DNA of 64,000 bases from a bacterium (GCA_003576755.1 QEVT01000002.1:346-64345); one strand, 5' to 3'. Positions 21,939 to 42,469 are shown, counted from the stretch's first letter. Numbers and translations: made by a program. Notes: generated by a model from the letters alone, not told the origin.

Positions 21939-21940
21939 TC

Positions 21941-25128: not shown

Positions 25129-25131
25129 CGC

Positions 25132-26217
25132 ATGTTGACCACGGGCTCCAGCGACTTCCAGGCTCACGAGCGACCGGCGTTCTTCAACGGTCAACGCCTG
25201 CTCGCGTCCGATCTTCAAGCCGTCGAGATCGCCAACCGCGAGATGCGCTGGCTGCACAACCGCTCACTGCACCAGGTGGGCATCGGCAGCGGGCTGGCGA
25301 TCGTCGGCAACAAGGGCGATCGCGTGGTCACCGTCATGGCGGGCTACGCGATCGACGATCTTGGGCGCGAGATCGTGCTAACGGAAGCGGTCCAGCTTGC
25401 GCTCCCGCCGGTCGCCGGCGCCGGAAAGGGTACGCCCGCCATCTACGATCTCACCATCAACTACGCCGATGATGACGACCTGAACGAGGCGGAAACGCGG
25501 GCGACGATCTGCGCGCAGTCCGAGCGTGGCGCCGTGCGATTGCGCGAGGCTCCGGCACTCTGCTGGGTATTGGTCAAGACCGAGCACGAAATCTCCCCCC
25601 TCGTCAAGTCCGGTCGCCGTATCCTCTTGGGCCGCGTGCGCATCCTGAACTGCGAGCTCTTCAGCCTTGAGATCGACCGCCGCCGAAACGCCAGGCCGTC
25701 GAAGCAGCCGTACATCGCGTGCGGCGTCGCCAATCCGGTGGCGTGGACGCCTTGGACGACAAAGAACGACAAAGGAAGCGACATCATTATCGGCTTATGC
25801 GCCGAGATCGACACCTCCACGGCGCGTTTTGGAGCCGTGCCGTGCTACACCGTTCGGATCGACGGCAAGCGGCCGTTGGATTGGCGGGTGAACGCATACG
25901 TGCACTCTGCCTTTGACGGGCCGGTAACCGTTTTCGATCCCCGCTCCGATGGCTTTACGGTTGGAGTGTTGCTGATGGAGATCCCGCCGCCCAGACCTGC
26001 TCAGCCTATAGAAGTCCCGCCCGGCGGTGGGCTCAACGTGGTTCGCGAAGTGGCCATGCCGGCAGCGTCCGCGGCGACACCGGCAGCTACTGGAGCTGCC
26101 GTCGAAGGGGTCTCTATGCCGAGCGCCTCGGTCGCTGCACCGAGCGCTTCGATCACTGATGCACTCCGGCCCGTTTTTTCGCCCTGGTCCGTCGTATGGA
26201 TGGGCGTCGAGGGATGA
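25132..26217 (+). CDS. Fibre/baseplate-periphery candidate, paralogue 2 (361 aa)
   Basis: FFNGQRLLASDLQAVEIANREMRWLHNRSLHQVGIGSGLAIV...GYAIDDLGREIVL has the same N-terminal module. The start lies 3 nt after the upstream stop. Confidence 0.6.
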   Translation: MLTTGSSDFQAHERPAFFNGQRLLASDLQAVEIANREMRWLHNRSLHQVGIGSGLAIVGNKGDRVVTVMAGYAIDDLGREIVLTEAVQLALPPVAGAGKGTPAIYDLTINYADDDDLNEAETRATICAQSERGAVRLREAPALCWVLVKTEHEISPLVKSGRRILLGRVRILNCELFSLEIDRRRNARPSKQPYIACGVANPVAWTPWTTKNDKGSDIIIGLCAEIDTSTARFGAVPCYTVRIDGKRPLDWRVNAYVHSAFDGPVTVFDPRSDGFTVGVLLMEIPPPRPAQPIEVPPGGGLNVVREVAMPAASAATPAATGAAVEGVSMPSASVAAPSASITDALRPVFSPWSVVWMGVEG

Positions 26218-28475
26218 CGATGCACGGCGCGCCACGCTTCCGGTACCTCAATCGCGAGAACCGTTGGGCCGGGTTCACGTTGAGGGGCCTCACCCTGGAC
26301 GAGGACGGCGCCCTGCGCCTGGCGCATCTGCCGGGGTTGGAGGGCGACGCGCCGGCGGGCCTCGCCGCGCTGCCCCGTCCGACGGAGCCCGGCGGCATCG
26401 CGGTAGGCCCGGACGGTGCGGCGTACTTCGCCGATGTCGTGCGGCATCAGGTGTGGCGCGTCGACCCGTGCGACGGGAGCCGGGCGCCGCTGGCCTGCAT
26501 CGGTGGTCCGGGCGATGTGCCGGGGACGGTGTACGAGCCGCGGGGTCTGGCCTACCACCCGTCCCGCCGCGCGCTGGTTGTGGTCGACAGCCTGAACCAC
26601 CGCTTGCAGCTCTTCGAGCTCGCGACGCTCCAGCTCGTCGACGTGTGGGGCGGTTGGGGCGATGGCGACGGGCAGTTCCGGAAGCCGTGGTCTGTAGCAG
26701 TCGATCGCGAGGGCAGCGTCTACGTGACGGAGCACACGACGGCGCGGGTGCAGAAGTTCGATGCGAAAGGACGCGTCGATGTCGGGTTCTGGGAAAAGGT
26801 TCGAAGCGCGATCAAAGAGAAGGAGCTTGCGTGGCAGCGGCCGGTCGCCGTCGCGACCAGCGGCGGCCGGCGCAAGGGCAGGGTCTACGTCCTCGACGGC
26901 GCCGCGGGCTGGGTCCATGTCTTCTTTGCGACGGGTGTCCATGAACGCAGTCTCAAGGTCGAAACAGACCAGGGGTCGGGTGTCGCACATACTTCGATCG
27001 AACCGATCGAGCCCATGGGTCTCGCCGCTGACGCCGAAGGCATCTACGTCGGCGACAATGCCGGCCGGCGCATCCTGCGCTTCCTGGCCGACGGCACGTT
27101 CGTCGGGGCAGCCCTAGGATACGACGGGCCGGTGGCGGCGTTGGGGATCGACGGGCAGGGTGGCCTGATCGTCCAGCCCGGCGCGGGCATGGCGCCCGTG
27201 ACGCTGACCGTGCGCGGCGGCCATGCCCGCTACGGATATGCGTGGGGGGGACCGTTCCGCAACGACAGCTACCGCGCCGAGCAGTGGCACTGGATTACGT
27301 CGGAGCTGGAGGCGAAGCCCGGCGCGCATGTACAGCTATTCGTCCTCTGCACGCGGCCCGAAGAACCGGCACCGGTGGGCGATCCCCCGTGGCGTGGCCG
27401 GGTTCAAGACTTCGACAATGCGCTGAAGGCCGGGCTGTCGCATGGCCCCGGGCTGTCCGCAACCGGACAAGCGGTGCCTTCGCCCTGGTTGGGACTACCG
27501 ATCGATGTGACGGAATGCCTGGTGCCCGGCGCGCCGGGAGGCGAGTTGGTGTGGGTGGGCGTGGCCATGACCGGTGACGGTCTGGAGAGCGCGGCGCTCA
27601 AGCAGGTCCGGCTGGAGTTCGATCATCTGACGTGGCTGCCCCACTTGCCCGCGGTGTATCAGGGCGACGATGCGTCGCGCCGCTTCCTGGCGCGCTTCCT
27701 GACGATGTTCGAGAGCCTGTTTAGCGAAGCGGAGCGGAGCATCGATCGGTTGCCGCAGTACTTCGACGCCGCGGCGGCGCCGAAGTCCGGGCTGGCGTGG
27801 TTGGGCAGTTGGCTCGGGCTGGAGGTCCACGAGGACTGGTCCGAGCCGACCAAACGGCGTGCGATCGCGGAAGCGATCGAGATGCACGGCCTGCGGGGAA
27901 CGGTCGAGGGGCTCCGGCGCGCCGTTCGGCTTTACACGGGCGCAGACGTGCGGATCCAGGAACCCTACCTGACGACCCAGTGGTGGTCGCTGGCGCCGCC
28001 GGCCGGCGACGCGGCGTCGTCCCTGGAGTCCGAAGGCTCGGTGCTCGGCCTCACCACGATGCTGGCACCGGCGGCGCCTCAGGGCGCAATCGTCGGGTCC
28101 ACGGCGACGCTGGACGGGTCGCACCTCATCTCAGGCGATCAGGTCGGCGAGCCGCTGTTTACCGACGTCGCCCATCAGTTCAGCGTACTGCTTTATCGCG
28201 GGGCAGGCTACAGCGATGCCGTCCGCGATGCAGTGCGGGCCGTGATCGATCGCGAGCAGCCGGCGCACACCACCTACCAGCTTTGTGTCATCGAGCCGCG
28301 CATGCGGATCGGTTGGCAGGCCCGGGTCGGCATCGACACCGTGGTGGCGGGCCCGCCGGGCGTGTCGCCCTTGGGCGATGCCGATGCCGCCGCGCCCGAA
28401 ATCACCCTCGGGGGCGATCCCCCGGGCGCAATCGGCGACCGGAGCCGTCTGGGCGTGACGACGCGCCTGCGCTAG
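26214..28475 (+). CDS. NHL-repeat beta-propeller fused to a P2 gpI-like phage tail protein domain (TIGR02242-type)
   Basis: NHL blades are VVDSLNHRLQLFE, GQFRKPWSVAVDREGSVYVTEHTTARVQKFD and IYVGDNAGRRILRF. The C-terminal LPAVYQGDDASRRFLARFLTMFESLF...LAWLGSWLGLEV...HGLRGTVEGLRRAVRLYTG is the gpI-family signature. An ATGA overlap at 26214 is the likely start. Confidence 0.75.
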   Translation: MTMHGAPRFRYLNRENRWAGFTLRGLTLDEDGALRLAHLPGLEGDAPAGLAALPRPTEPGGIAVGPDGAAYFADVVRHQVWRVDPCDGSRAPLACIGGPGDVPGTVYEPRGLAYHPSRRALVVVDSLNHRLQLFELATLQLVDVWGGWGDGDGQFRKPWSVAVDREGSVYVTEHTTARVQKFDAKGRVDVGFWEKVRSAIKEKELAWQRPVAVATSGGRRKGRVYVLDGAAGWVHVFFATGVHERSLKVETDQGSGVAHTSIEPIEPMGLAADAEGIYVGDNAGRRILRFLADGTFVGAALGYDGPVAALGIDGQGGLIVQPGAGMAPVTLTVRGGHARYGYAWGGPFRNDSYRAEQWHWITSELEAKPGAHVQLFVLCTRPEEPAPVGDPPWRGRVQDFDNALKAGLSHGPGLSATGQAVPSPWLGLPIDVTECLVPGAPGGELVWVGVAMTGDGLESAALKQVRLEFDHLTWLPHLPAVYQGDDASRRFLARFLTMFESLFSEAERSIDRLPQYFDAAAAPKSGLAWLGSWLGLEVHEDWSEPTKRRAIAEAIEMHGLRGTVEGLRRAVRLYTGADVRIQEPYLTTQWWSLAPPAGDAASSLESEGSVLGLTTMLAPAAPQGAIVGSTATLDGSHLISGDQVGEPLFTDVAHQFSVLLYRGAGYSDAVRDAVRAVIDREQPAHTTYQLCVIEPRMRIGWQARVGIDTVVAGPPGVSPLGDADAAAPEITLGGDPPGAIGDRSRLGVTTRLR

Positions 28476-28523
28476 AGAAAGAACATCCGTGCGCATCCAT
28501 CCAGCGTATCTTCAGGAGGAACG

Positions 28524-29411
28524 ATGAACCGCTCGCAACGAGCCAGATCGAGGGGTACCGACATCACGTCGCCGCTCCGCAACAATTACTTCCACGGCAA
28601 GATGATGGATGCGTACCACTTCCAGCTGGAGACGCACTATCACAACCACTTGCGCTCGATGCTGAACAGACTGGTGATCGGCCGGGGCGTGGTCTGCGGG
28701 CTCAACGTCACGCATCGGCAGGACTGCGACGGCTGCGAAGAGCCCGAGACTCCCGTGATCGACATTGCCCATGGCGTGGCCATCGATGCCTGGGGGCGGC
28801 CCATCGTGGTGCCGTCGGACGTCAAGTGCCTGCCCATTCCGAAGGACAGGATCATCGAGGCTCTGGAGCTGACCGAGGAGTATGGGGGCGCGGGCACCGC
28901 CAGCCGGCACGTCGGCCATGGCCCTCCGGGCAAGGACGACGACGACGATGAGAAGGGGCCCAACGGTTGGGTGCAGGTGCTCATCGGCTACCACGAGTGC
29001 CAGGTCGACCCGGTGCCGGTGTTGGCGGGGGACTGCCACGGCGGGCAGTCATGCAATGCCGGCACCATCCGCGAGTGGTACAAGTTCGACTTCCGTGCCG
29101 GCCGATCGCAGCGCATCGATCTGCACTGCAACATCCCGGATGTCGTCACACGCGGCCGGGTGAACTACGACAAGATCGTCGACTGGGTCACGATCCCGGA
29201 CGAGAACGAGCTTACGGGCTGCCGCGAACGTCCCGAAGCGTCGTGGCTGCCTTTGGCCGACGTGCACTTCGATCTGGATGAATCCGGCGACGCGCCGCGC
29301 TTCGTCATCGATCGTGTCGACATCTACCGCCGGCGGGTGGCGTACTCCAACCGGCTGCTCTTCGAGATGCTCTTGGACCTCATCCAGGCCCGGCGTGGCC
29401 CCAACCGATGA
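28524..29411 (+). CDS. Fibre/baseplate-periphery candidate, paralogue 3 (295 aa)
   Basis: RBS AGGAGG. YFHGKMMDAYHFQLETHYHNHLRSMLNRLVIGRGVVCGLNV...GVAIDAWGRPIVV has the same N-terminal module as the other three. Confidence 0.6.
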   Translation: MNRSQRARSRGTDITSPLRNNYFHGKMMDAYHFQLETHYHNHLRSMLNRLVIGRGVVCGLNVTHRQDCDGCEEPETPVIDIAHGVAIDAWGRPIVVPSDVKCLPIPKDRIIEALELTEEYGGAGTASRHVGHGPPGKDDDDDEKGPNGWVQVLIGYHECQVDPVPVLAGDCHGGQSCNAGTIREWYKFDFRAGRSQRIDLHCNIPDVVTRGRVNYDKIVDWVTIPDENELTGCRERPEASWLPLADVHFDLDESGDAPRFVIDRVDIYRRRVAYSNRLLFEMLLDLIQARRGPNR

Positions 29412-29432
29412 CCACTCAGCACGAGGTGAGAC

Positions 29433-30695
29433 ATGCAACGCACCACTGATTGCGGCTGCGGCTGCGGCCAAGGCCACGCCGGCGTGATGGAGCGGCCGCG
29501 CTACTTCCCGCGCCAGCTCATCACGCCCGACGACATGAACCTTGAGCAGGCGTACTTCCGCGACAAGATGCGGCGGCACAACAAGTACCTCCATGGCTGG
29601 GGCGTCGTGTGCGGGGCGCAGGTTTGTGCGGCCACAATGAAGGGAAAGGACGCCTCCGGCAAAGAGGTCGACGTCCCCAAGCCCTGGACCGTCGTGGTCC
29701 AGCCGGGCTACGTCCTCGGCCCCGGCGGCGACGAGATCTACATCGATTGCCCGCGCGAGGTCGACGTTCGCACGTCAGGGCTGGCCGTGAAGTCCGGCGA
29801 GCCCGCGGGTGCGTGGGAGGATCCGTGGTGCACGCCGGTCCGCGTCCCGAACAACGAAGCCGGCACGGTCTACATCGGGGTGCGCTACAAGGAGTTCAAG
29901 ACGCGCAAGGTCCCGGTGTACCCCGCCGGGTGCGGCTGCGACGACACGCAATGCGAGGAGTCGCGCTGGTGCGACGGCTACGAGATCTGCATCCTGGACT
30001 CGTGCCCGGACTCCCACAAAGGCCCGCCGCCGCTGAGCATGGTCGCCAATGCCAAGACGGCTGAGACGCTCGTTGGCAACCCATCTCCCCCGTGCCCTGG
30101 CTGCAGCGACGACTGCGTGGTCCTGGCCAAGGTCTCGTTCAACGCCGAGGGGACATTCGGCGATAACGGAATCGACCACTGCGCCTGCCGGCGGAACGTG
30201 CTGTCGTTCGGGCATGTGTGGTGGGGGTGTGGGGAGGCAGTGACGGATGGTACGAACGGTTCGGGCGGCGTTGAGCCTCCCACATCTGGGGAGTGTGAGA
30301 TCGTCGTGCATCGGATTGTTGCGCAGTACAAATATACCAGCGGGGCGCCGCAAATGGTACGAGAGATTACGCGACATGGCGGCACAGCCGATAGCGCGAT
30401 CAAGTGGGGCCCAGTGCCACACGACATCGCGAAGTACATCGAAGTGACTCTTGAAGGGGATGGATTCCTTTGCGGTAACATTGCAAAAGAGACTCAAGTA
30501 TCTGTTGGCCAAGGACTGAGGGTCGAAAGTTCTTGGGTCGAAAGAGTAGAGTTGACGAACAGTCGACAGCGCCTTATCTTCCAACTCGTTCGCGACGAGG
30601 CTCCGGTGTTCACTCCGGGCTTTCGATCACTCACTATCATCAACGCCGTGGGTAAGTCATGGCGACTCGATAATATCATCGAGGTGACAGAATAG
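29433..30695 (+). CDS. Fibre/baseplate-periphery candidate, paralogue 4 (420 aa), Cys-rich with a low-GC C-terminal domain
   Basis: YFPRQLITPDDMNLEQAYFRDKMRRHNKYLHGWGVVCGAQV...GYVLGPGGDEIYI. There are more than 20 Cys, including CGCGCG at the N-terminus and GCGCDDTQCEESRWCDGYEIC. The last ~150 codons are visibly AT-richer. Confidence 0.6.
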   Translation: MQRTTDCGCGCGQGHAGVMERPRYFPRQLITPDDMNLEQAYFRDKMRRHNKYLHGWGVVCGAQVCAATMKGKDASGKEVDVPKPWTVVVQPGYVLGPGGDEIYIDCPREVDVRTSGLAVKSGEPAGAWEDPWCTPVRVPNNEAGTVYIGVRYKEFKTRKVPVYPAGCGCDDTQCEESRWCDGYEICILDSCPDSHKGPPPLSMVANAKTAETLVGNPSPPCPGCSDDCVVLAKVSFNAEGTFGDNGIDHCACRRNVLSFGHVWWGCGEAVTDGTNGSGGVEPPTSGECEIVVHRIVAQYKYTSGAPQMVREITRHGGTADSAIKWGPVPHDIAKYIEVTLEGDGFLCGNIAKETQVSVGQGLRVESSWVERVELTNSRQRLIFQLVRDEAPVFTPGFRSLTIINAVGKSWRLDNIIEVTE

Positions 30696-30719
30696 TCGGC
30701 GCGAAAGGGGTCGTGAGCC

Positions 30720-31601
30720 GTGGTCAACGCATTCGCCGTGATGCTCATGCAGCCAGACCTCCCGGATGCCAAGACGATCCAGGACAACCTCGACTGGTTT
30801 GTCAGTGCAGTCGTGACGGTGCTTGCCTTCTTGCTGCCCTATCTCATTCGCCATTACGGCCTCATCGCCTCGAAGGGCCGGGCCGATCGGCTGGGCCGGA
30901 TCGTCGCCCTCGCCGACCAGGCCGTGGCGATGGCCGAGGAGCGGGCGCGGAAGGATGACCTGCCGCTGGGACCGGACCGTACGGAGCGCCTGAGCAAGTT
31001 GGCGACGGCGGTCGAGTTCGTGAAGAAGGAGCTGCAGAAGTCGGGCATCGAGGTCGATCCGGAAGAGGCCAAGAACTACGTCATCGCCGCCTACGGGTCG
31101 AAAGTCGGCAGCGTCCTGCCAGTCGGCGCCATCGCCGCAGCGACGGCCGCCGTGGCCGACAGGCTCCAGAGCCTGGATCGGCGCGCGGACGTCGCGCTGC
31201 CGCCCGGCGTGGATCGCGCGACCCATCTGATCGGCCTCGCCGCCAACGCACTGCAGGTGGAGCTGGCCAAGTCGGGCATCAGCATCAGCGCCGATGACGC
31301 CGCGAGCTGGCTCAGGGCGGAGGTCTTCCGACGGCTGGAGGGCGACGATGCCGCCCTTCCCGCGAGCGACCAGCTGGAGCGGCTGGCGACCGAAGCGTAT
31401 GCGTTCGTCGACCGGCTCAGGGCGGGCGGAAAGCTCGCGCTACAGGCGTCCGGACCCGCGGAAGAGACCGACTTGCGCATCGCGGCCGCCTGGCTGCTCA
31501 GCGAAGTTAGCGAACGCGGGCTGCCGGTGTCGCTGGACCAGGTGGAGGGCGCGATCCTCGCGGCGCGGGCCGCGCGGGAGGGAGGCTCACTGAGGCGATA
31601 A
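30720..31601 (+). CDS. Membrane protein with one N-terminal TM helix and three LL-H-holin-like repeats (putative holin/lysis or release factor)
   Basis: The TM helix is LDWFVSAVVTVLAFLLPYLI. Three repeats follow with the pattern '...A..V...L.KSGI.V..DE.....I.A.V', for example ATAVEFVKKELQKSGIEVDPEEAKNYVIAAY, ANALQVELAKSGISISADDAASWLRAEVF and AAWLLSEVSERGLPVSLDQVEGAILAARA. The family call is from memory of the Holin_LLH pattern and is not verified. Confidence 0.5.
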   Translation: MVNAFAVMLMQPDLPDAKTIQDNLDWFVSAVVTVLAFLLPYLIRHYGLIASKGRADRLGRIVALADQAVAMAEERARKDDLPLGPDRTERLSKLATAVEFVKKELQKSGIEVDPEEAKNYVIAAYGSKVGSVLPVGAIAAATAAVADRLQSLDRRADVALPPGVDRATHLIGLAANALQVELAKSGISISADDAASWLRAEVFRRLEGDDAALPASDQLERLATEAYAFVDRLRAGGKLALQASGPAEETDLRIAAAWLLSEVSERGLPVSLDQVEGAILAARAAREGGSLRR

Positions 31602-31668
31602 CGGGTCGGTCTGCTGCTACCAAGAGAATTCTCCGCTCGCTTTTCTTCATGGCTGAGGAGGCCCCACC

Positions 31669-32580
31669 TTGACCGTAACACGACGCATCTTTGTTAGCAG
31701 CCCTCGTGACGACCACCTGGATGCTCGCCGTCGCAGTATCAAGTGGGCGATCGTCGAGCAAATCGAGACCCTGGGATACGAAGTGCAGATGTTTGGATCG
31801 CCTGAGGGGGGTCGAGGCTTGGTCAAGTCGCAGTCTTGGAGTTCTGGTGAGGCGCATAATGTCATGAAGCGATGTATTGGTGCAGCGGTCCTCGGACTCC
31901 CGATTTGGCGCGCTAGATCAATGGTAAAGAACGAGCCTTTCTCGCTGGTCTCAGAATATTGCCACTACGAAGGTGCCATGGCACGTGTGTATGGCCTCCC
32001 GATCCTTGCAGCAATAGAGAGCAATACAGCGGAAAGAGTCTTGTTCAACCATTACGCCGGCGATACGGCCAAAGTAATTCCAGTAGATGCCGACCCGGCA
32101 TGGGCAGCGCAGGACGACTTCCGCGCTTTCCTGGGAACTTGGCACTCCCAGCTTTCAGAACGCAAGGACATCTTCTTGGCATACAGCGGCAAACTGGTCG
32201 GGACGGCAGCCAGCATTCACAACATTCTGACGAGCTTGGGGGCAACCGTGCTCGACTGGAAGCGCGACTTCGTAGGAGCAAGAACGATCCTCGAGCAAGT
32301 GGACGACGCCGCGAGGCGTACGAGTGGTGGTGTGTTTCTGTTCACACGCGACGACCGAATCAAAGGAGGCGTCGCGCAGGCGGCGCCTCGCGACAACGTG
32401 ATCTTCGAGGCGGGATTCTTCGCAAACGCCAAAGGCCATGAACGCACGTTGATTATAAGAGAAGAAGGTGTGAAAATGCCCGCTGATCTCGGGGGCGTCA
32501 TCTACGAGTCCTTGCCTGATAGAGCAGACGTGTCGAGCCTTGAAGAGCGGTTGCGGCTTTTCCTCAACGTTGCCATCTGA
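31669..32580 (+). CDS. Tandem TIR-like / nucleoside-deoxyribosyltransferase-like protein; the C-terminal domain is CAP12/PycTIR-type (predicted NAD+ hydrolase)
   Basis: TTG start with GAGGAG 8 nt upstream. The C-terminal domain is DIFLAYSG...GGVFLFTRDD...APRDNVIFEAGFFANAKGHERTLIIREEGVKMPADLGGVIYESL, with the candidate catalytic Glu at nt 32407-32409. The N-terminal domain is RIFVSSPRDD...SEYCHYEGAMA..GLPIL. Confidence 0.7.
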   Translation: MTVTRRIFVSSPRDDHLDARRRSIKWAIVEQIETLGYEVQMFGSPEGGRGLVKSQSWSSGEAHNVMKRCIGAAVLGLPIWRARSMVKNEPFSLVSEYCHYEGAMARVYGLPILAAIESNTAERVLFNHYAGDTAKVIPVDADPAWAAQDDFRAFLGTWHSQLSERKDIFLAYSGKLVGTAASIHNILTSLGATVLDWKRDFVGARTILEQVDDAARRTSGGVFLFTRDDRIKGGVAQAAPRDNVIFEAGFFANAKGHERTLIIREEGVKMPADLGGVIYESLPDRADVSSLEERLRLFLNVAI

Positions 32581-32711
32581 GGGAGCGTGATGCAGTTGGT
32601 ATCACCCGCTGCGGAACACTCGCTCGTCGATTTGACTTCCGTCGATCAAGCCTTCGTCGCGTCTCGTGCGCAATGTAGGTCGACCAAGCATCTTGGCTCA
32701 CGCACCGAACC

Positions 32712-34589
32712 TCACGGCGGATCGATATGGATCATGCTAATCCAGTCGCCGCCCGCCGTACCATTGCCGCTGACCGCGACGTCGCCGATCCGATACGGCG
32801 GGATGTTGTTGCCATCTAGCGCCCGCCCGTTTTCCACGTTCAATCCCGAGCCCTGGGCATCCAGGATGTAGTCGCCGCGCAGCACCACCGTCACGCGGTG
32901 GACGCGCTCCAGGATTCCGCTCCACTTCCCCGCGTCGCCGCTGTCGTCGAGCTGCAGCAACACGCCCTGTGCCTTCGCCGTCGGGCTGGGGTCCGCGCTC
33001 ATGTCTGGTGGGATCGGCAGATCGTCCCATCCGACGACGAGCCGGACCCTAGCCGAGCGCCGCTCGTACCCGCCGATCAGGCCGGGGACATCCTTGCCAT
33101 CGCGCATGGCGATGTCCACATCGAGGTCCACGTTGTCGACCGATGAGTCGATGGCGACCGGGATCACCTGCATCGGCAACACGGCCTCGAACTCGAAGTT
33201 GGCGAGGTCGGCGAAGGACTTCTGGATCTCGGTATCGAACGGTGCGAACAACAGGTTCTTGAGCTTCGGCGTCAACTTGAACGAGACCTTCACGAACACG
33301 CTGCGACGGTGCAGCGTACGCACGAGCACGGGGTTGAGGAACGCGATCAGCAGCCCCGGCTGCTCGGCTCCGCGCCGTCGCGTTCGGGAGTAGAGGTTCT
33401 TTCCGAACTGCGACCGGTTCACCACTTCGTCGTGGTACCAGCTTGTGCCGATCACTTGATTGAACGTCGGCATAGCGCCCAATCCAGCCGGGCCTGTCGG
33501 TCCTTGTGGTCCGGTGGGGCCGGTGGGACCGGGGAAGCCGGTTCCGATCGCACCGGTGGGGCCAGTAGGACCGACAGCGCCCGCACCGGTCGGCCCGGTC
33601 GGCCCGGTGGATCCAGTGGAGCCGGTCACGCCAACTCCCGTCGGGCCGGTAGGGCCGGTTGGACCGGGCAAGCCGAGGCCGGTGGGGCCGGTAGGACCGA
33701 CAGCGCCGAGGCCGGTCGGGCCGGTGGGGCCGGGCAGGCCGACGCCGGTCGGGCCGGTGGAGCCAGTCGATCCGATAGGCCCGGTCGGACCGGTGGGGCC
33801 GACGGTACCGCCGTTCACGTCGCCAGTCGGTCCGGTTGGACCTCGGGGTCCAGTTGGGCCGGGCGTGCCTTTCGGACCGGTGGGGCCGAGCAAGCCGACG
33901 CCGGTTGGTCCGGTGGAGCCAGCCGAACCGGTCGGGCCGGTTGGGCCGGTGGAGCCATGGGGTCCAGTTGGGCCGAGTGCGCCGGTGGGGCCCGTGACTC
34001 CCGATCCCGCCGGTCCGGTTGGGCCTGTTGGGCCGGGTATTGCAGTGCCTTCCGCAAAGGCGATAGGGCCCGTCGGTCCTATCGGCCCTGTCGGCCCGGT
34101 GGCACCCATGGGGCCAGTCGCACCGTCGGATCCACAGGCGCCAGTCGGCCCGATTGAACCTGTTGGTCCTGTTGGGCCGTCGCTACCGTCGACGCCGGTC
34201 GGACCGATGGCGCCGGTCGGACCCATTGGACCGGTTGCCCCGGTCGGACCATCGTGCCCATCCGCGCCCTTCGAGCCGATAGGACCGGTCGGTCCAGTCG
34301 GGCCTGCCGGGCCCGAGGCTCCGTCACACCCATCCGCACCCTTCGGCCCGGTAGGACCCTCTTGTCCCGTGGACCCGATTGGGCCGGTGAATCCGATTGG
34401 ACCCGTGGAGCCGGTCGGACCCATTGGACCGGTCGGGCCCGTCGCGCCGTCGCAGCCGTCCGCGCCTGCCGGGCCCGCAGGGCCGGTCGGGCCGGTCGGT
34501 CCTGTGCAGCCACTCGAACCACACGGCCCGCTGGGTCCTTCAGGTCCAGGCGGGCCGGGTGGGCCGACGATGCAGATCGTGTCGCTCAT
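32712..34589 (-). CDS. Collagen-like triple-helix-repeat protein 1 (625 aa): 8-aa N-terminus, ~360 aa of G-X-Y (mostly GPT), ~260-aa C-terminal globular domain
   Basis: It begins [22 protein letters not shown] and continues as long G-X-Y tracts with a few interruptions. The non-repetitive C-terminus ends [12 protein letters not shown]...ALDGNNIPP...[16 protein letters not shown]. No signal peptide is present. Confidence 0.85.
33480..34565 (-). repeat. G-X-Y (GGN-CCN-ACN-rich) collagen-coding triplet repeat tract of gene 32712-34589
   Basis: 3-nt periodicity is visible over about 1.1 kb. It also generates a spurious mirror ORF on the + strand (33460-34614). Confidence 0.85.
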
Positions 34590-34647
34590 GATGGTATCGA
34601 GTGTGATGGACTAAACGGTCAGTCTCGACGGAGGTGCAGGTGCTTCA

Positions 34648-36204
34648 TCAGGCATTGATCCGAATGACACTGTACCAGTCGTTGCCCTCCACCCCGTGTC
34701 CACTGGGCCTTTGGGGGACACCGGGCGCAATGGGAGCGCCGTCAAGGGCATGGACCCTGTCGTCATCATCCTGCTCCCCGAGAATCCAGGCGCCGCGGAG
34801 CACGACGGTCAACGCGTGGATCCGGAAGTGACGGTTATCCTTGCCAAGCCATTTGCGCCAGAACTCCTTCCAGTCTGGTGCAGGGTTGTCGACGAAGATC
34901 CGGACACCGTTCACTCCGGCATCCGGGTTGACCCCCACTGGCTGAAAGTCCTTGATCAGGGGTCTCGGAAGAGCCGGAAACAGTTCCGCTTTCACCTGGA
35001 CAGGCTCGATGCGAACCGGTATCCGGCGCGACCGAATGGTCCGGACCGGCGCGACTCCCGCCATCTCCTTCTCGAACGTTTCATCCGCGTCCGCGATGAG
35101 CAGTACCGTGTCGATGTTCAGGGTGGCAACTTGAACGCTCTGACTGAACTGCACGACAAAGCCGACCTTGTCCGCTGCTTCGCCACAACCGCTGTAGGCA
35201 GCCAACAGCCCATCGACGTTGACCGGGGTTCGCGCCTGCGACCAGCTCGCGTTGACAACGTGCAGCATTCCGCGAGCGTCGATTGCGGAGCCTCCGGCAC
35301 CGGGAAGACCGCGTGGGCCGGTAGCGCCTCGCGGACCGGTCGGCCCTTGCGGGCCCGGTAGTCCTTGGCCCTCGGGACCAGTCGGCCCCGCAGGTCCCGG
35401 CGGCCCCTCAGGGCCCGTCGGACCGATCGGGCCCGTGATACCCAGGGGTTCACCGTCTACAACCACGACGCCGGTCGGGCCTCGCGGGCCAGTGGGGCCA
35501 GTCGGTCCAGCGGGGCCTTGTGCGCCGGCGCCTGTTGGCCCAGTAGGTCCATCGGGTCCACGTTCGCCAACACCGGTGGGGCCAGTCGGTCCAGCGGGGC
35601 CTTGCGCGCCGACGCCTGTTGGCCCAGTAGGTCCATCGGGTCCACGTTCGCCAACACCGGTGGGGCCAGTCGGTCCAGCGGGGCCAAGTGCGCCGACGCC
35701 GGTAGGCCCGGTGGGCCCCGCCGGGCCAGTGGCACCGGTAGCTCCCTTCTCCCCACACTCGGTTGGCCCGGTGGGTCCCGCCGGACCCGTGGGACCGGCA
35801 GGTCCAGTAGGCCCCGCCGGGCCAGTAACGCCGGTTGCACCCTTCTCCCCGCACTCCGAAGGTCCGGTGGGCCCCACTGGACCCGTGGGACCGGCAGGTC
35901 CAGTAGGCCCCGCCGGGCCGGTGGCGCCGGTAGCACCCGTCTCCCCACACACCGAAGGCCCGGTGGGCCCGATTCCGGTTGGCCCAGTGGGCCCTGCCGG
36001 GCCAGTGGCGCCGGTAGCACCCTTCTCCCCGCACCCGGTCGGCCCTGTCGGTCCCGCGGGCCCTGTAGGGCCCATGGGCCCACGAGACCCGGTGGAACCC
36101 TCCGGCCCTGCCGGTCCGGCCGGACCCGTGACTCCCGGCCGTCCCTGCGGTCCCTGCTTTCCAACGGGACCGGGTGGGCCAACGACGCAGATGGTGTCGC
36201 TCAT
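34648..36204 (-). CDS. Collagen-like triple-helix-repeat protein 2 (518 aa), paralogue of 32712-34589
   Basis: The internal ATG at 36204 gives [21 protein letters not shown], the same 8-aa N-terminus as paralogue 1. There are repeated CGEKGATG(A/V)TGPAGPTGP units. The C-terminal domain ends [12 protein letters not shown]...ALDGAPIAP...[16 protein letters not shown], which is homologous to the paralogue 1 terminus. Confidence 0.85.
35290..36180 (-). repeat. G-X-Y collagen-coding triplet repeat tract of gene 34648-36204
   Basis: Continuous G-X-Y translation on the minus strand. A mirror ORF on the + strand (35219-36223) is an artefact. Confidence 0.85.
35490..35698. repeat. About 2.5 copies of an 84-nt tandem duplication inside collagen-like gene 2
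   Basis: Units 35531-35614 and 35615-35698 are identical except for 3 positions near their 3' ends. A partial copy precedes them. Each unit encodes the 28-aa [28 protein letters not shown]. Confidence 0.8.
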
Positions 36205-36527
36205 GATGTGTTCCTGGGTGTGAGGAGGCCGTGTGAGATATGCGTAGGTCGAGCGCGATCGACGGTGCGGCACGTGCTTGCCGCCGGGCGAGGCACAGGA
36301 TGGCCACAACGTAGGGCGAAGCTTGCCAACCTGTATTGTGGGTGTGAAGTGTCTGTGTCACTGTCTCTTCAATGTCTCTTCGGGCGTCTGCGGCCCACCT
36401 AAACCCTGTGTATCGCCTTGTAGCCGTCGCCGGATTGACAATTGTCGCGGCAAGCCTTCATCATTCCGCCTCGTCAAGCCACTCGGCGCGATGGCGAGCA
36501 CGTCATCCTTCTCACAAGGCGATCGCG

Positions 36528-38510
36528 ATGCGAGTCCTGATCCGAACGTACGACTTCGACGATCTCGGCGGCAGCGGGGCGTCCATGCGCACCGTCGCCG
36601 ACTTCCTCCAGGCGTGCGGCGACGAGACTTGGGCCCCACGCGGCCGCGAGACGCTCGAAAGGCTGCGCGCGTGGTCGCCGGGCGTCGTCTTGGGCCAGCA
36701 GTGGGCGACGGAAGAGGCCAGTATGTGGGCGATCGCCTTGGGCGTTCCCTTTGTGATGTTCGTCCGCGGGCCCGGACAGTACGAGCACTTCATGCCTCAA
36801 TGCGATCTGGTTGTGTTCAACGCTTCGTCGCAGCTCGAACTCGCCCTTCCGGCCATTGGAAGGACGCCGGCCGCGGTGCTCCATCCGCCGGTCCTGCCGG
36901 CAGACTACGCCACCGACGGCGGCGGATCGCACATCACGCTCATTGGAACGGGCGCGCTCAAGGGTGCCGATCGATTCCTGACACTGGCACGGAAATTCCC
37001 AGACCATCCCTTCCTGTGGGTAACCGACGAACCTTCGGAAGCACCTCCTTCCAACGTAGAAGTGTGCCCGAGGACACCGAACATGCGGTCGATCTACGCC
37101 CGCACCAAGCTGCTCGTGATGCCATCGCGAAGCGAATCCTACGGCCGCGTTGCCATCGAAGCGGCCATGAGCGGCATTCCGGTCGTGGCATCGGACCTGC
37201 CGGGCATCCGCGAAGCGACGGCCGGGCACGCGGTCTTGGTCGCGGACGAGCGGGAATGGGTGACCGCAGTACGGAACGTGCTTGCGAACATCGAGCCGCA
37301 TCGCCGCGCGGCGCTTGCGTTGGCGGCGCTCCGTGACCCCTCGGTCGAGCTCGAGGCCCTCCGCAGCCGACTCCAGGCCTTGGTCGATGCCGGCCGCCGT
37401 CGGCCGACGCTGTCGCTGTGTATGACGGTCGCCAACGAGGCGGCGACGCTGGCCAAGGCCGTCGCGTCGGTGCGGGAAGTCGTCGACGAGGTGATCATCG
37501 GCGTCGATACGCGCTCGTCGGACGACACGGCGGCCATCGCGCGCACGCTGGCCACGGATTACTTCGAGTACACCGAATCGAGCCCGCCCGACTTCCGGCG
37601 GATGCGCAACCGCGCCATGGAGCGGGTACCAACCGACTGGGCCATCGTGTTGGATGGCCACGAGTGGATCGAGAACGCCCACCTGATCCGCCCGGCGCTC
37701 GAAACGACGGCTTGGTCCATCGAGATCCGAACGCTGTTCGAGCCCGACGCGAACCGCATCCCGGGTCTCTCGTTCCCCTTCCCGCGCATCCATCGGCGCC
37801 ATGTACGGTTCGTCGGCGCGGCCGTGCACGAGGAGGTCTCGACGCCCGTCGCGCGCCGGTCACGACAGATCGACATCCGTGTCTGGCACGAGCGCAAGCC
37901 GGGCTCCGCCGCGACGACCCGCGGCGCCGAAAAGTCGGGCGCCGAGCTGGACGTGCTCCGGGCGGCATGGCAAGAGCGCAACGACCGCCGCGCGTTGTTC
38001 TACCTGGCCAACGGTCTGCGGGAGTCGGGGCGACTGGAAGATGCGGTCGAGGCATATTCAACCTACCTGGAGGCGCCGAACTTTGAGGAGGAGGGCTGGC
38101 AGGCCAGGCTGTATCTCGCCCGCTGCCACGCGGCCCGCCAAGCTTGGCCCGCGGCGAAGCAGTGCTTCGAGCAGGCGATCCTGGCGTGGCCGGAACGGGC
38201 CGAAGCCGTTATCGGCCTCGGGCATGTGCTCTTGGCGAAGGGAGAAGCGCGTCACGCGGCAGCATGGTTCCGCATGGCGGCCGGGTTGCCTGAACCGTCG
38301 GACTGTCGCCTCTTCGTCGAAGTGCCGGCCTATCGGTGGCAGGCCTGGCACGGCCTGGCGCTGGCACTGGACCGGCTTGGTGACTACGCCGGAGCGCTCG
38401 AGGCCGAGACGGAAGCCAAGGCCCGCGGCGCTGGTGCGTGGGCGGATGTGAACATCGGACGGTGGCGCGCGCTGTCGGGACATGGGACGGGAAACGGGGC
38501 GGGAAGCTGA
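36528..38510 (+). CDS. Three-module glycosyltransferase: GT4 (GT-B) + GT2 (GT-A) + C-terminal TPR repeats
   Basis: The GT4 C-terminal motif is LLVMPSRSESYGRVAIEAAMSGIPVVASDLPGIREA. The GT2 motif is LSLCMTVANEAATLAKAVASVREVVDEVIIGVDTRSSDDTAAIA. The TPR-like tail is ALFYLANGLRESGRLEDAVEAYSTYLE...ARLYLARCH...GLGHVLLAKGEARHAAAWF. The start is taken at MRVLIRTYDF. Confidence 0.8.
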   Translation: MRVLIRTYDFDDLGGSGASMRTVADFLQACGDETWAPRGRETLERLRAWSPGVVLGQQWATEEASMWAIALGVPFVMFVRGPGQYEHFMPQCDLVVFNASSQLELALPAIGRTPAAVLHPPVLPADYATDGGGSHITLIGTGALKGADRFLTLARKFPDHPFLWVTDEPSEAPPSNVEVCPRTPNMRSIYARTKLLVMPSRSESYGRVAIEAAMSGIPVVASDLPGIREATAGHAVLVADEREWVTAVRNVLANIEPHRRAALALAALRDPSVELEALRSRLQALVDAGRRRPTLSLCMTVANEAATLAKAVASVREVVDEVIIGVDTRSSDDTAAIARTLATDYFEYTESSPPDFRRMRNRAMERVPTDWAIVLDGHEWIENAHLIRPALETTAWSIEIRTLFEPDANRIPGLSFPFPRIHRRHVRFVGAAVHEEVSTPVARRSRQIDIRVWHERKPGSAATTRGAEKSGAELDVLRAAWQERNDRRALFYLANGLRESGRLEDAVEAYSTYLEAPNFEEEGWQARLYLARCHAARQAWPAAKQCFEQAILAWPERAEAVIGLGHVLLAKGEARHAAAWFRMAAGLPEPSDCRLFVEVPAYRWQAWHGLALALDRLGDYAGALEAETEAKARGAGAWADVNIGRWRALSGHGTGNGAGS

Positions 38511-38783: not shown

Positions 38784-39560
38784 CTATCCGTGGTGCGGGC
38801 CTTCCATCCACACCATCCACTTCAGGTTGATCTCGTCCCAGTCGTAGACGACGTTGGCGCCGTCGAAGGACTTGTCGGTCTGATAGCCGTACGGATCGTT
38901 GACGATCCAGCGCGTAGCGCCCGCCTCCTCGTAGAAGCCGCAGACGACGATCAGGTGATCCCACCCGAAGAGCTTGCCGCTGGCGATCACGGGGTGGCGG
39001 TTGCGCAGCAAGGTCTTGATGATCTCCGGCGCCTCGTTGGATTTGAACGCGAACTTGTCTGCGTTCCCCAGGGGGCCCAGGAAGTGCTTGAGCACCGCCT
39101 GAATGTTTGACGCCCGTGCGCACCATCCACCGCCGCAGTACTGCCCCACGACCGCGCCATAGATGCCCTGGCCCCGGCCGTTCTTCGGGGTCGCGGCCGA
39201 GGCGTCGAAGGTCCTTCCGCCGAAGGTGAAGGGATTGGAGACGTACCAGCCGAACTTGCTCTCATGCCCGTACCCGGCCGGCGCCGACACGGTGATCGGA
39301 TGGGGTTCGAGCACACCGTAATGAGCGAGCACCATCGTCGTGCTCGTCGGCCCGCAAGCCCAATGGCCGTTAAAGTCGTCCGGCGTGTCCCAAAGTTGGT
39401 GGATGAAGGGAACGTCCAGGTTGACCTCCGGGTTCGGGATCGGATGGGTGAGGCTCCTGGGGGAGTCGGCGATGGCGCGCTCCTCATCGGGCGTGGTCTC
39501 CGGCGGGTAGCCGGCGCCCGCCACGCCGTCGAGGGCATCGTGATCGAAGCCGTCGGTCAT
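38784..39560 (-). CDS. Papain-like cysteine peptidase, C39-like (Peptidase_C39_2-type), no signal peptide
   Basis: LDVPFIHQLWDTPDDFNGHWACGPTSTTMVLAHYG (Cys nucleophile context) and KLFGWDHLIVVCGFYEE...WIVNDPYG (His context). The internal ATG at 39560 is chosen. The upstream part of the 352-aa ORF is Arg/Pro-rich junk. Confidence 0.65.
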   Translation of the reverse strand: MTDGFDHDALDGVAGAGYPPETTPDEERAIADSPRSLTHPIPNPEVNLDVPFIHQLWDTPDDFNGHWACGPTSTTMVLAHYGVLEPHPITVSAPAGYGHESKFGWYVSNPFTFGGRTFDASAATPKNGRGQGIYGAVVGQYCGGGWCARASNIQAVLKHFLGPLGNADKFAFKSNEAPEIIKTLLRNRHPVIASGKLFGWDHLIVVCGFYEEAGATRWIVNDPYGYQTDKSFDGANVVYDWDEINLKWMVWMEGPHHG

Positions 39561-39636
39561 GGTGATCTCCTGATGCTGGGCGATGGGTGGTATTGATGCG
39601 AACGGCAGTTCAGGCGGACGGATCAGGACGCCGGGT

Positions 39637-42012
39637 TCATCCCGGCGCCACCGACCAATCGTGGGCCGCGATCGCGTCCCAGCGCCCTGCGTCGAGCGCG
39701 GCGTTCCATTGGAAGAAGTTGGCGCCGGCGAGGTCGAAGGTCTCGCGCGCGGCAGTGAGGAAGGCGTCGATCGCCTCCGGCGTGGCCGAGATGCCGCCTT
39801 CCATGCGATAGGCGACGCCTGTCGGGAACACGGGCCGCGCATGGGGCAGCCGGGCGTGCTCGTCGAGGCTGCGCCGCAAGCTCTCGGCAGGCGGGGTGTT
39901 TAACCAGTAGACCCGGGGCATGTCCAGGTCGCAGTGGGCGAGGAACTCGGCCCAGGGGAAGGATCGGTGCAGGCTGGGGAAGCGGTAGCTGGAGAGGCCG
40001 ATCGGCAGCTCCTGCAGGTCGGCGCGCAGGCGTTCCATGTAGTGTCCGGCGCGGCCGGGCTGGCCCTTGAAGTCGCCCTCGGCGTTGACGACGAAGCCAT
40101 CGAGCCCGTACTGCTCGATGCGTCGGATCGCGACCTCTGCCTGCAGCTCGGGTGGGATGTCGACGATCTTGGCAGGATCGGCGTTGAGCCTGATGCCGTG
40201 GACGGCCTGCCAGCCCCAGACGCCTACGCCAGCCGCGCGCAGGGCGTCGACCAGCGGACGCACGCGATCGGTGCCGCCAGGGCCGAGGTTGAAGGGCGTG
40301 GCGTGGTCGGCAATCTTGACCAGCACATGCGTCAGACCGCCGCGCGCGGCCATGTCGGCCAGGCGGGCAAAGGGGTCGGCGGGACCGGGCTGGGCGGCGA
40401 TGCGTTTGAGGAGCCGGTCGATCCGCCAGATCCACATTCCCTTGCCGCGCAGCCGCACGGCGGCCTCGGTGCTGGCGCCACGGGTCGCGATCTCCGGCAG
40501 ATCGGCGCGATCCCCGCACCCCGCCGTCACCGGAGCAAGCGCGCGGTCCCTTGCCGCCACGACATCCCCGCGCACCCTGATGTTCGCCGCAGCGGGTGGC
40601 ATCGCCCGGGCGTCGGTGGCCGGCGGGATCCCGCGCGTCGTCGGGAAGAGGTCGGGGAGACGCTGGTGGAGGAGCGTGCGTTCCTGGGCAGTGAGGTTCG
40701 GCAGATCATCGATCGCGGGGCCGGCGTAGGGGGCCTGGCGGGCCTTGACCAGATCGGTCAATCCAGCCGCGACGACGAGATCCCATCCCGCCTTGCCGAC
40801 CTGCGCCGCGGTGAAGAACAGGGCGTTGATCACGTGCTGGTTGGTGTAGACAGGGGCGCTCGGACCTGCCGGGCCGCCATCGGGAGCGGAGGGGAAGAGC
40901 CGGTCGACGGTGGACCGATAAACCCCGAAGGCAGGCTTGCGACCGGTGGGATTGACCTGGCCACGGCGGTGCAGACCGTAGAACTGGCGCTGGCCCTGGT
41001 TGATCTCGAAGTCCTCGGTGGAAAACCAGATCGCCAGGGCGACATCCCGGTCGGCGGCGACGATCTCGAGGGCCAGGCGGAGGTTGTCGGCCTGGAAGCG
41101 CAGGTCGGCCTCGTTGTCGTCATTGCTCTCCCAGCCGATCTCGGAGACGTAGAGCGGCTTGGGACTGGTGCTGCCCTCGGCGTTGCGTATGGTGTTCAGC
41201 ATCTCGGTGACATATCGCTTGTAGCAATCGCGGACGTCGCGGGCGTGCGCGCTGAAGTCCGGGTTGAACTCCGGGACGATGTATAGGTGATAGCCGATCC
41301 CGTCGAAGGGAAAGCCGCGGCCGTCGCGTCCCCAGCGGAGCTTCTGCTGCCCAGCCTGATAGGTGCGCGCAAGGTAGTTCGCTGCGCCGTTGCCGAACTT
41401 CAGCCCCTGCAGCGGCCCGCTGACCAGCTTGACTCCGCCGCCGATCCCAAGCTCACCGCGGACCTTGTCGTGGACCGCTTGGAGCATGCGGGCGAACCAG
41501 AACGGGTGGATCCAGTTCGGGCTGGGCAGCTCGGGAGAGGGTTGCATGCCGTGCCAATCGTCGGGCTCGTTGAAGGACTCGAAGACGCTGACCCGGTCCC
41601 CGAAGTGCTGCACAATACGCCCGAAGGCGGCGGTGTACTCGGCGACCCAGGCGTTGGCGGCGGCGCGGTCAGCGGCGGACATCCGCTCTTCGGGATGGCG
41701 GAAGAGCGTGTCAAGCCGGCCATCGAGGTCCGTCCGCACGCTCTCGCGCCCGACCAGGCCGTAGACCTGCAGCCCACGGGCGCGGAAGCCGTCGACGAGT
41801 GCGCCGAAGGTGTCGAGCCAGGTGCGGCCGTTGTGCCGCGTGTCGTCGTCGGGCGACGACCACGGACCCAGCATGAAGTTGAGGCGCACCCAGGCGGCCC
41901 CGGCATCGGCGAAGATCGCGGGGTCGACGGTGGGGGTCGGGGCGCCGCGCTGGGGGCCGTCGGGGTGGATGGGGCGGTTGGCGTCTAGGCCTAGTTTGTG
42001 GGGGATGTGCAT
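39637..42012 (-). CDS. Two-domain glycoside-hydrolase-like protein (791 aa): N-terminal clan GH-A TIM barrel + second TIM-barrel-like domain; no signal peptide
   Basis: The N-terminal domain has FESFNEPDDWHG (NEP acid/base motif) and LYVSEIGWES (nucleophile Glu context). The C-terminal half (GMWIWRIDRL...GLTHVLVKIADH...VGVWGWQAVHG...GFVVNAEGDFKG) looks like a second glycosidase-like barrel. The family is not assignable by eye. Confidence 0.6.
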   Translation of the reverse strand: MHIPHKLGLDANRPIHPDGPQRGAPTPTVDPAIFADAGAAWVRLNFMLGPWSSPDDDTRHNGRTWLDTFGALVDGFRARGLQVYGLVGRESVRTDLDGRLDTLFRHPEERMSAADRAAANAWVAEYTAAFGRIVQHFGDRVSVFESFNEPDDWHGMQPSPELPSPNWIHPFWFARMLQAVHDKVRGELGIGGGVKLVSGPLQGLKFGNGAANYLARTYQAGQQKLRWGRDGRGFPFDGIGYHLYIVPEFNPDFSAHARDVRDCYKRYVTEMLNTIRNAEGSTSPKPLYVSEIGWESNDDNEADLRFQADNLRLALEIVAADRDVALAIWFSTEDFEINQGQRQFYGLHRRGQVNPTGRKPAFGVYRSTVDRLFPSAPDGGPAGPSAPVYTNQHVINALFFTAAQVGKAGWDLVVAAGLTDLVKARQAPYAGPAIDDLPNLTAQERTLLHQRLPDLFPTTRGIPPATDARAMPPAAANIRVRGDVVAARDRALAPVTAGCGDRADLPEIATRGASTEAAVRLRGKGMWIWRIDRLLKRIAAQPGPADPFARLADMAARGGLTHVLVKIADHATPFNLGPGGTDRVRPLVDALRAAGVGVWGWQAVHGIRLNADPAKIVDIPPELQAEVAIRRIEQYGLDGFVVNAEGDFKGQPGRAGHYMERLRADLQELPIGLSSYRFPSLHRSFPWAEFLAHCDLDMPRVYWLNTPPAESLRRSLDEHARLPHARPVFPTGVAYRMEGGISATPEAIDAFLTAARETFDLAGANFFQWNAALDAGRWDAIAAHDWSVAPG

Positions 42013-42046
42013 GGGTTAGCTCCCAACGAATAGATGTCGATGGTGG

Positions 42047-42469
42047 TCACGGTGCCTCAACAGCTGCAGGCTCCGCGGTGGTCGTCGGGCAGGGGGTGGG
42101 CGATCGCTTGTCCAAGCTCCCGGACGCCAACATCTTGCCATTCGGGCTGAACGCCACACTCCAGATCACCGCGCTATGACCCCGTGGAGGTCGGCCCAGG
42201 CCCTGCTGGCTGGTCACATCCCTGAGGATGATCGTGTCAACCAAACTTCTTGACGCCAGGATCTTGCCGTCTGGGCTGACTACCGCGTTCCCAACCCCGT
42301 TGATGTGGCCCGTCAGTAGATGACCGAGGCGCTGCCGACTGAACACATCCCACAAGATGATCGTGTCAGTCGAGCTCAAGCGATCTGCAGAGCGGGGTGC
42401 CGCGACATCACGCACTTTCTTCACCCCTTCGCCCTGTCCTCGTGCTCTCGAACAGACACTGCGCCTCAC
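42047..42469 (-). pseudogene. WD40-repeat protein remnant (about 2.5 repeats, no N-terminal domains)
   Basis: TIILWDVFSRQRLGHLLTGHINGVGNAVVSPDGKILASRSLVDTIILRDVTSQQGLGRPPRGHSAVIWSVAFSPNGKMLASGSLDK are canonical WD40 units. The first ~40 codons are junk and abut the GH25 stop codon. Confidence 0.55.

Follow-up and report, generated by a model that had tools for sequence, protein, structure and literature searches.

What are two genes for long collagen-like proteins doing at the edge of an operon for an extracellular contractile injection system (eCIS)? The question is raised by a 64,000-nt stretch of bacterial DNA (GCA_003576755.1, QEVT01000002.1:346-64345; the window, taken at its full length) that comes from a Chloroflexi metagenome-assembled genome (MAG). 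An earlier note on this sequence had drawn attention to the pair and had offered two answers, namely that the proteins are long eCIS fibers of an undescribed type or that they form a surface 'nap' analogous to the exosporium. The two genes, here called P1 and P2, and the layout of their products, each with a C-terminal domain (CTD), are as follows.

32712-34589, minus strand: P1, collagen-like protein of 625 aa (open reading frame (ORF) analysis); octapeptide MSDTICIV, collagen at residues 9-371 (~33477-34565), CTD at residues 372-625 (32715-33476)
34648-36204, minus strand: P2, collagen-like protein of 518 aa counted from the conserved ATG; octapeptide MSDTICVV, collagen at residues 9-307 (~35284-36180), CTD from ~residue 313 (34651-35268)

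On balance it seems somewhat probable that both proteins are collagen fibers of the neighboring eCIS, without an anchor and probably glycosylated, which would dock onto the particle in trans and be released with it by lysis. This fits better than the nap, which is weakened and is retained here as a rival, because the CTD is nearly confined to proteins in the eCIS fiber slot and because the collagen genes and an adjacent glycosyltransferase gene stand at the edge of a conserved eCIS block. The fiber type is not wholly undescribed, since collagen shafts have been catalogued in eCIS fibers of the eBAP3 type (PMC12923769). What is new here is the lack of an anchor, a very long Thr-rich collagen, an apparently dedicated glycosyltransferase and a head without a structural relative.

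The C-terminal domain and its place in eCIS fibers

The CTDs of P1 (254 aa) and P2 (~206-215 aa, varying with the chosen domain start) are homologous over their full length at 26-30% identity, with an insertion of ~40 aa in that of P1. The earlier note had recognized this homology and had confined it to a terminal motif, which proves not to be the sole similarity. Pfam, PHROGs and PDB sequence searches gave no match to the CTD. Word-indexed homolog searches returned the query itself and a single ortholog, and their profile version nine proteins; an exhaustive HMMER profile search of 1.84 billion representative proteins was needed to recover the family, which comprises 40 representatives at E<=1e-3. 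Fifteen of these 40 carry a Cis19-like N-terminal domain and two carry DUF6519/eBAP5, and nearly all of the long representatives (at least 700 aa) are among these 17. Two further representatives have DUF6734 instead of an anchor, and most of the remaining ones are fragments. Nearly all occurrences of the CTD are at the C-terminus of proteins in the eCIS tail-fiber slot that bear a baseplate anchor of the Cis19/eBAP type.

Most full-length members of the family are 920-990 aa long and share one architecture, in which an anchor domain (motif RNRYFDGKLL..DF..EQ.Y....RLHN.LHG.GTVCGL) is followed by a beta-propeller, a conserved neck (IDN..HRp.vPSTnTLrqVIECMLxKGIsEGiPGPRGP), 4-22 collagen triplets and the CTD. 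There are variants in which DUF6519 replaces the N-terminal domain (P0013, P0019) or in which the N-terminal domain is joined straight to the CTD (P0039, P0042). The anchor-domain profile (A3), which was built from other operon proteins with P1 and P2 excluded, matches Cis19 of the Anabaena thylakoid-anchored contractile injection system (tCIS; All3314, PDB 7b5h) with E 7.7e-8. Six Cis19 trimers make up the 'crown' of the baseplate, and they bear flexible fiber-like extensions (Weiss et al. 2022, PMC8894136). The N-terminal domains that anchor eCIS fibers to the baseplate have been named eBAP1-5, DUF6519 being eBAP5, and many eBAP3 fibers pair beta-propellers with collagen-like shafts (Nat Commun 2026, PMC12923769).

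Genes for anchored CTD proteins lie directly after a (NHL+)Tail_P2_I gene or inside baseplate clusters (L007, L008, L009, L012/13 and L014), positions that agree with a fiber role; a DUF6734-CTD fusion in L011 is the one exception. One apparent case of a 'naturally split' fiber that starts at the neck (P0049, MLEQG...) is a gene-calling artifact of a gapped, frameshifted assembly.

AlphaFold gave an unusable model of the CTD from a 3-sequence alignment (pLDDT 51); with 21 sequences, the P2 CTD is predicted as a beta-sandwich with two helices (pLDDT 87, pTM 0.86). Foldseek searches of this model against PDB and BFVD returned nothing at E<=1e-3, with a best TM-score of 0.27. The C1q/TNF-like jelly roll that the earlier note had suggested testing for in the CTD is rejected on these searches, in which the sole TNF-family entry was GITRL (TMq 0.08). 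As modeled, the CTD is a head domain without a solved structural relative.

DUF6734 is encoded as a separate gene between two Cis19-like fiber genes in an Anaerolineae MAG (L006, 1781-2758) and is fused directly to the fiber CTD in cyanobacteria (L011, 10001-11812; P0018). It had been suspected of being a glycosyltransferase; it has no PDB relative by sequence, so it is not counted as one.

A conserved octapeptide and no anchor domain

Both proteins start with MSDTIC[IV]VGPPGP and run at once into GPT-rich G-X-Y collagen, as first described, and both ORFs and tracts were verified. P1 cannot be extended upstream because an in-frame TAG lies 8 codons before its start. A mechanical reading of the P2 ORF adds 35 codons, to a TTG at 36309, in a stretch that is not kept in orthologs. 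Since collagen begins at residue 9, there is no space for a signal peptide in either protein, as the earlier note had stated, and neither their sequences nor the Pfam and NCBIfam searches revealed a signal peptide, an LPXTG or SLH motif or any other means of anchoring to wall or membrane. Nor do P1 and P2 contain a Cis19/eBAP-type anchor, a beta-propeller or a neck, and no upstream extension of either ORF could supply them.

The octapeptide is identical at 7/8 positions between P1 and P2 despite a CTD identity of only ~26-30%. It is kept as M-S-[DS]-T-[IV]-C-[IV]-V in all four proteins with a known N-terminus, namely P1, P2 and the proteins of two other loci (L001 and L010). Anchor-less CTD proteins with long collagen occur in three loci besides the window.

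L001, Anaerolineales MAG: collagen rich in (GAT)n, N-terminal octapeptide present, CTD 59% identical to that of P2
L010, metagenome: N-terminus MSSTVCIVPGPEGP, collagen of 114 triplets, CTD P1-like (32% identity, E 2e-31) and sharing the ~40-aa insertion of P1
L016, metagenome: N-terminus lost at the contig end, long G-x-T tract, CTD P2-like (36% identity)

Because relatives of both the P1 type (L010) and the P2 type (L001, L016) exist, P1 and P2 represent two old sub-lineages and not a recent duplication.

Public gene calls shorten both collagen genes of the window to their CTDs (253 and 206 aa), and short-read contigs of the same strain stop within the collagen repeats (window 33503-33605 and 35558-35707). 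Annotation therefore misses parts of such genes systematically, and short-read assemblies leave the number of their repeats uncertain.

Long, threonine-rich collagen tracts

The Pfam Collagen model (PF01391; cut-off 27.2) is matched by P1 with 122.6 bits (E 5e-36) and by P2 with 82.7 bits (E 2e-23). P1 has 112 G-X-Y triplets, of which 43 are GPT, and P2 has 89, of which 28 are GPT; about half of the triplets are G-x-Thr. Such tracts are 5-25x longer than those of the anchored fibers, with their 4-22 triplets, and they differ in composition: Thr fills 46-79% of the Y positions across five long collagens (46-51% in P1 and P2), whereas it fills 8% (12/158 triplets) in the short collagens of anchored fibers, where charged residues dominate. 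In the long collagens the residue at X shifts between Pro and Ala while the Thr at Y stays. Codons for Gly, Pro and Thr are mixed inside the repeats of P1 and P2, and the tracts are therefore kept at the protein level and not as simple DNA repeats.

The collagen triple helix rises by 0.286 nm per residue, at which the stalks would measure ~104 nm in P1 (residues 9-371) and ~86 nm in P2 (residues 9-307). In both proteins the helix has many short interruptions of the G-X-Y register, mostly of 2 residues, and the Cys residues of P2 are located at such breaks. The unit CGEKGATG, which had been counted four times in P2, is exact in three cases and reads CGETGATG in the fourth. These CGE[KT]GATG units lie within the second of two tandem repeats that Tandem Repeats Finder reports in the P2 collagen.

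35492-35709, minus strand: 84-nt tandem repeat, 2.6 copies, 94% identity
35699-35970, minus strand: 96-nt tandem repeat adjacent to the former, 2.8 copies, 85% identity

The 84-nt duplication had been noticed before within narrower bounds (35531-35698), which have to be widened as above, and had been taken to show that the tract is actively changing length. That claim is not supported: no repeat-length variation was seen in five other contigs of the same strain, which are 99.98-100% identical and simply stop inside the collagen repeats. Contigs from other assemblies stop within the 84-nt repeat, at 35707 and 35558.

Repetitive genes of this kind might be taken for remnants of prophage collagen-like tail fibers, for non-functional repeat ORFs or for assembly artifacts in high-GC DNA. 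Prophages commonly carry collagen-like tail-fiber genes, and short-read assemblies break in these repeats, whose copy number may be mis-assembled. However, neither a search of 2.9 million viral contigs nor PHROGs gave a relative, and a phage origin is rejected for lack of viral relatives. The ORFs are intact, with start, octapeptide and CTD conserved across four lineages, the CTD is folded confidently by AlphaFold, and the mixed codons, along with the retention of Thr, suggest that selection acts on the protein. An origin of this sort is therefore very improbable.

A glycosyltransferase gene beside the collagen genes

Next to P2, and divergent from it, lies a gene for an enzyme with two glycosyltransferase domains (GT4 and GT2) and tetratricopeptide repeats (TPR).

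36528-38510, plus strand: GT4(GT1)-GT2-TPR glycosyltransferase, 660 aa from the ortholog-conserved Met; the ORF opens at 36372

Pfam recognizes Glyco_trans_1_4, Glycos_transf_2 and TPR in this protein, and 'Chloroflexi bacterium CFX6' has a protein of identical sequence. A homologous GT2-TPR gene adjoins the collagen gene in all three stand-alone loci with a readable context (the window, L001 and L010). In the window and in L001 it encodes the GT4-GT2-TPR fusion, at the same position; in L010 it encodes a GT2-TPR protein, which shares 27% identity over 319 aa with the corresponding half of the window enzyme (E 3e-11) and matches the NCBIfam SunS model weakly (33 bits against a cut-off of 350). 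Among solved structures, GmaR (E 1.2e-9) and SunS (E 4e-4 over ~90 residues) come nearest to the GT2 part, and OGT matches the TPR part.

GmaR is the flagellin O-GlcNAc transferase of Listeria and SunS the S-glycosyltransferase of the peptide sublancin; like OGT, both glycosylate proteins or peptides in the cytoplasm and have TPR repeats besides their catalytic domain. In architecture, the GT2-TPR half of the window enzyme resembles GmaR and SunS, at a sequence similarity far under the family cut-offs, and the window enzyme differs from them in its additional N-terminal GT4 domain. The conserved pairing supports, but does not prove, the collagen proteins as a putative substrate of the adjacent enzyme. 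A GT2 gene near the anchored fiber of L009 was considered as a counterpart and is not homologous to the window enzyme; the glycosyltransferase link is therefore claimed solely for the stand-alone class.

The eCIS operon and candidate docking partners

The collagen and glycosyltransferase genes follow upon an eCIS operon and a short series of genes beyond it.

1537-28475, plus strand: eCIS structural operon with eCIS_core proteins, WHD-AAA ATPase, Pvc16_N, sheath, Phage_base_V (spike OB domain), two Baseplate_J and NHL+Tail_P2_I
24163-25128 and 25132-26217, plus strand: two paralogs of the Cis19/eBAP3-like N-terminal domain, found with the anchor profile
26196-28475, plus strand: NHL beta-propeller + Tail_P2_I baseplate protein, followed directly by the anchored CTD-fiber gene in relatives
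28524-29411, plus strand: Cis19/eBAP3-like anchor-only 'stub' of 295 aa, candidate docking partner
29433-30695, plus strand: Cis19/eBAP3-like short fiber of 420 aa, with the anchor domain and a C-terminal domain of ~170 aa
30720-31601, plus strand: Holin_LLH-like protein (Pfam 2.6e-8; holin by PHROG) that is conserved in L001 and has ~170 aa more at its C-terminal end
31669-32580, plus strand: CAP12/Pycsar-type TIR protein of 303 aa (C-terminal TIR, Pfam E 1e-22), last plus-strand gene of the eCIS block

Past the operon, the genes for the 295-aa, 420-aa, holin_LLH-like and TIR proteins (plus strand) are met by P1 and P2 (minus strand), and the convergent orientation to the eCIS operon reported in the earlier note is upheld by gene order and Pfam content. 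Scans for promoters and terminators yielded nothing informative. In a tblastx comparison the window is syntenic with L001 at 21887-38384, the start being the operon-side limit of the L001 sequence compared, and the shared block includes the 295- and 420-aa proteins, the holin-like gene, P2 and the glycosyltransferase. The synteny stops exactly at the end of the glycosyltransferase; past this point the flanks differ, L001 having a ferritin and a penicillin-binding protein (PBP) there. The TIR gene and P1 are missing from the syntenic L001, and the TIR protein could be an eCIS effector or a defense gene.

The C-terminal end of the 295-aa stub, ...IDRVDIYRRRVAYSNRLLFEMLLDLIQARRGPNR, aligns with the neck that immediately precedes collagen in the fused fibers, so that the stub stops at the point where collagen would begin. 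Such an end would fit a split fiber made of the stub and a collagen-CTD protein. The holin_LLH-like protein, by its domain match, is a candidate for the lysis or release function of the eCIS, and release by holin-type lysis would account for fibers without signal peptides.

Proposed assembly and attachment, and their alternatives

We infer that P1 and P2 each trimerize, as their collagen repeats and the trimeric nature of their anchored relatives suggest, and that each would then form a flexible triple-helical stalk of ~85-105 nm, broken by register interruptions of which several bear Cys. At its distal end would stand the beta-sandwich head, presumably a receptor binder, from the family of the C-terminal domain of anchored eCIS fibers. 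Because neither protein has a signal peptide, synthesis should be cytoplasmic, where the adjacent GT4-GT2-TPR enzyme probably glycosylates Thr at the Y position (or Cys). As P1 and P2 lack a Cis19/eBAP baseplate-anchor domain, joining to the particle would have to be in trans; the likeliest contact would be the octapeptide M-S-[DS]-T-[IV]-C-[IV]-V and the likeliest partner one of the four anchor-only or short Cis19-like operon proteins, notably the 295-aa stub. Release of the particles may then proceed by holin-type lysis. A more specific proposal, which we offer tentatively and consider rather doubtful, is a two-piece eCIS fiber in which the Cis19-like stub captures a separately encoded collagen rope of ~100 nm, roughly equal in length to a typical eCIS particle, that a dedicated GmaR/SunS-like enzyme has glycosylated in the cytoplasm on ~40-55 Thr (or Cys). 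Such a fiber would be the first glycosylated component of any contractile injection system and a swappable 'plug-in' receptor-binding module with a head of a new fold.

Several observations weigh against fibers that dock in trans. P1 and P2 have no anchor domain; they form a transcription unit of their own, convergent to the operon; and the stretch in which the octapeptide resembles the neck (MSDTICVV against ..VIECML..) is too short to establish homology. A reducing cytoplasm would not allow disulfides. Moreover, the window and L001 are fairly close relatives, whose shared ancestry could explain part of the synteny, and although the L010 contig encodes an eCIS_core protein, it lacks a structural operon within 21 kb. 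Finally, the cyanobacterial DUF6734-CTD protein (L011) is without obvious contractile injection system neighbors.

Three of these observations, the missing baseplate anchor, the separate and convergent transcription unit and the DUF6734-CTD protein outside an obvious eCIS locus, also speak for the nap. In that case the proteins would form a cell-surface or sheath layer of glycosylated collagen, analogous to BclA, that has borrowed an eCIS head and acts independently of particles, perhaps by helping filaments adhere or by coating the cells protectively. GPT-rich collagen, a globular CTD and an adjacent glycosyltransferase are likewise what BclA-type glycoproteins would lead one to expect. Yet a surface layer accords poorly with proteins that lack a signal peptide and any LPXTG, SLH or comparable anchor for wall or membrane, and with a CTD that is not C1q/TNF-like and is elsewhere tied to the eCIS fiber slot. 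The collagen and glycosyltransferase genes, moreover, close a conserved eCIS block whose flank differs past them. We consider the nap unlikely.

The missing anchor would be equally natural in free, collectin-like soluble adhesins, which would be freed with the particles at lysis and would bind or agglutinate target cells or matrix with no attachment to the baseplate. A head of the presumed receptor-binding type on a long, flexible trimeric stalk would suit this role, and the holin-like gene in the same block would permit release without a signal peptide. However, the strongly conserved octapeptide suggests specific docking or cross-linking at the end opposite the head, and the operon holds an anchor-only stub that ends at the neck, both of which make free adhesins quite improbable.

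Likeness to known systems

The closest systems described are the eBAP3-type eCIS fibers (PMC12923769), which P1 and P2 resemble in CTD family, in having a collagen segment, in their eCIS loci of environmental bacteria and as presumed trimers. The differences are that P1 and P2 are without eBAP anchor, beta-propeller and neck; that their collagen has 89-112 triplets, not 4-22, and is Thr-rich (46-51% of Y) instead of charged with 8% Thr; and that they stand on the opposite strand at the locus edge, paired with a GT2-TPR glycosyltransferase, and that an anchor-based search would miss them. Of the features by which eCIS fibers have been defined (PMC12923769), P1 and P2 show the locus-edge position and the CTD common to anchored fibers, and they lack an eBAP1-5 anchor. 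With Cis19 (All3314, PDB 7b5h) the relation is indirect: its baseplate-binding N-domain is homologous to that of the anchored CTD fibers and to the four small operon proteins, the Cis19 domain is absent from P1 and P2, and Cis19 itself has neither a long collagen tract nor this CTD.

Among bacterial collagens, the exosporium glycoprotein BclA of Bacillus and BclA3 of Clostridioides difficile, with its glycosyltransferase SgtA, combine (GPT)n collagen with a globular CTD, O-glycosylated Thr, no classical signal peptide and an adjacent glycosyltransferase gene. The likeness of P1 and P2 to BclA and BclA3, as judged from their general description, consists in the (GPT)n-type collagen, the globular CTD and the adjacent glycosyltransferase gene. 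In contrast to BclA, they have no C1q/TNF-like CTD and no N-terminal targeting region (an exosporium-targeting domain of ~20-40 aa in BclA), as only 8 residues precede the collagen, and they come from a Chloroflexi MAG and an eCIS context instead of spore-coat genes. The streptococcal Scl1/Scl2 and Legionella Lcl share bacterial G-X-Y repeats with P1 and P2, with NCBIfam matches over the repeats only. Scores of 138 and 151 bits fall far short of the cut-off of 325 for Scl1/Scl2, and P1 and P2 have no signal peptide, LPXTG or V-domain.

The particles of eCIS are being engineered as programmable protein-delivery devices, in which the fibers set the targeting. Current catalogs detect fibers through the N-terminal anchor, and an anchor-less class on the opposite strand would be systematically overlooked. 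If P1 and P2 are indeed fibers that dock in trans, they would provide a new receptor-binding head fold specific to fibers of contractile injection systems and a natural case of fiber modules attaching in trans. They would also be the longest and most flexible eCIS fibers known and might be the first eCIS components with a glycosyltransferase dedicated to them. A Thr-rich bacterial collagen with a candidate glycosyltransferase is in addition relevant to the design of recombinant collagen.

Other genes of the window and of related loci

The operon includes a gene for a protein with eCIS_core, PG_binding_1 and CHAP domains (window 8465-9958, plus strand), and an eCIS_core+PG_binding protein is encoded in L010 (12896-15103), two genes from the stand-alone collagen gene. 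The right flank of the window, 38784-51629, is a variable island that is not common to L001. Its genes encode a Peptidase_C39_2 protein, a GH5-like protein, a GH25+SH3 muramidase, a CHAT+SIR2 protein (44799-47114), an nSTAND1+BNR/sortilin protein (46925-50371) and a DDE_5 transposase. Farther to the right, in a region of 74% GC, 59622-63995 (plus strand) encodes a 1457-aa protein that is apparently secreted and has a weak beta-helix match and long Pro/Thr-rich linkers.

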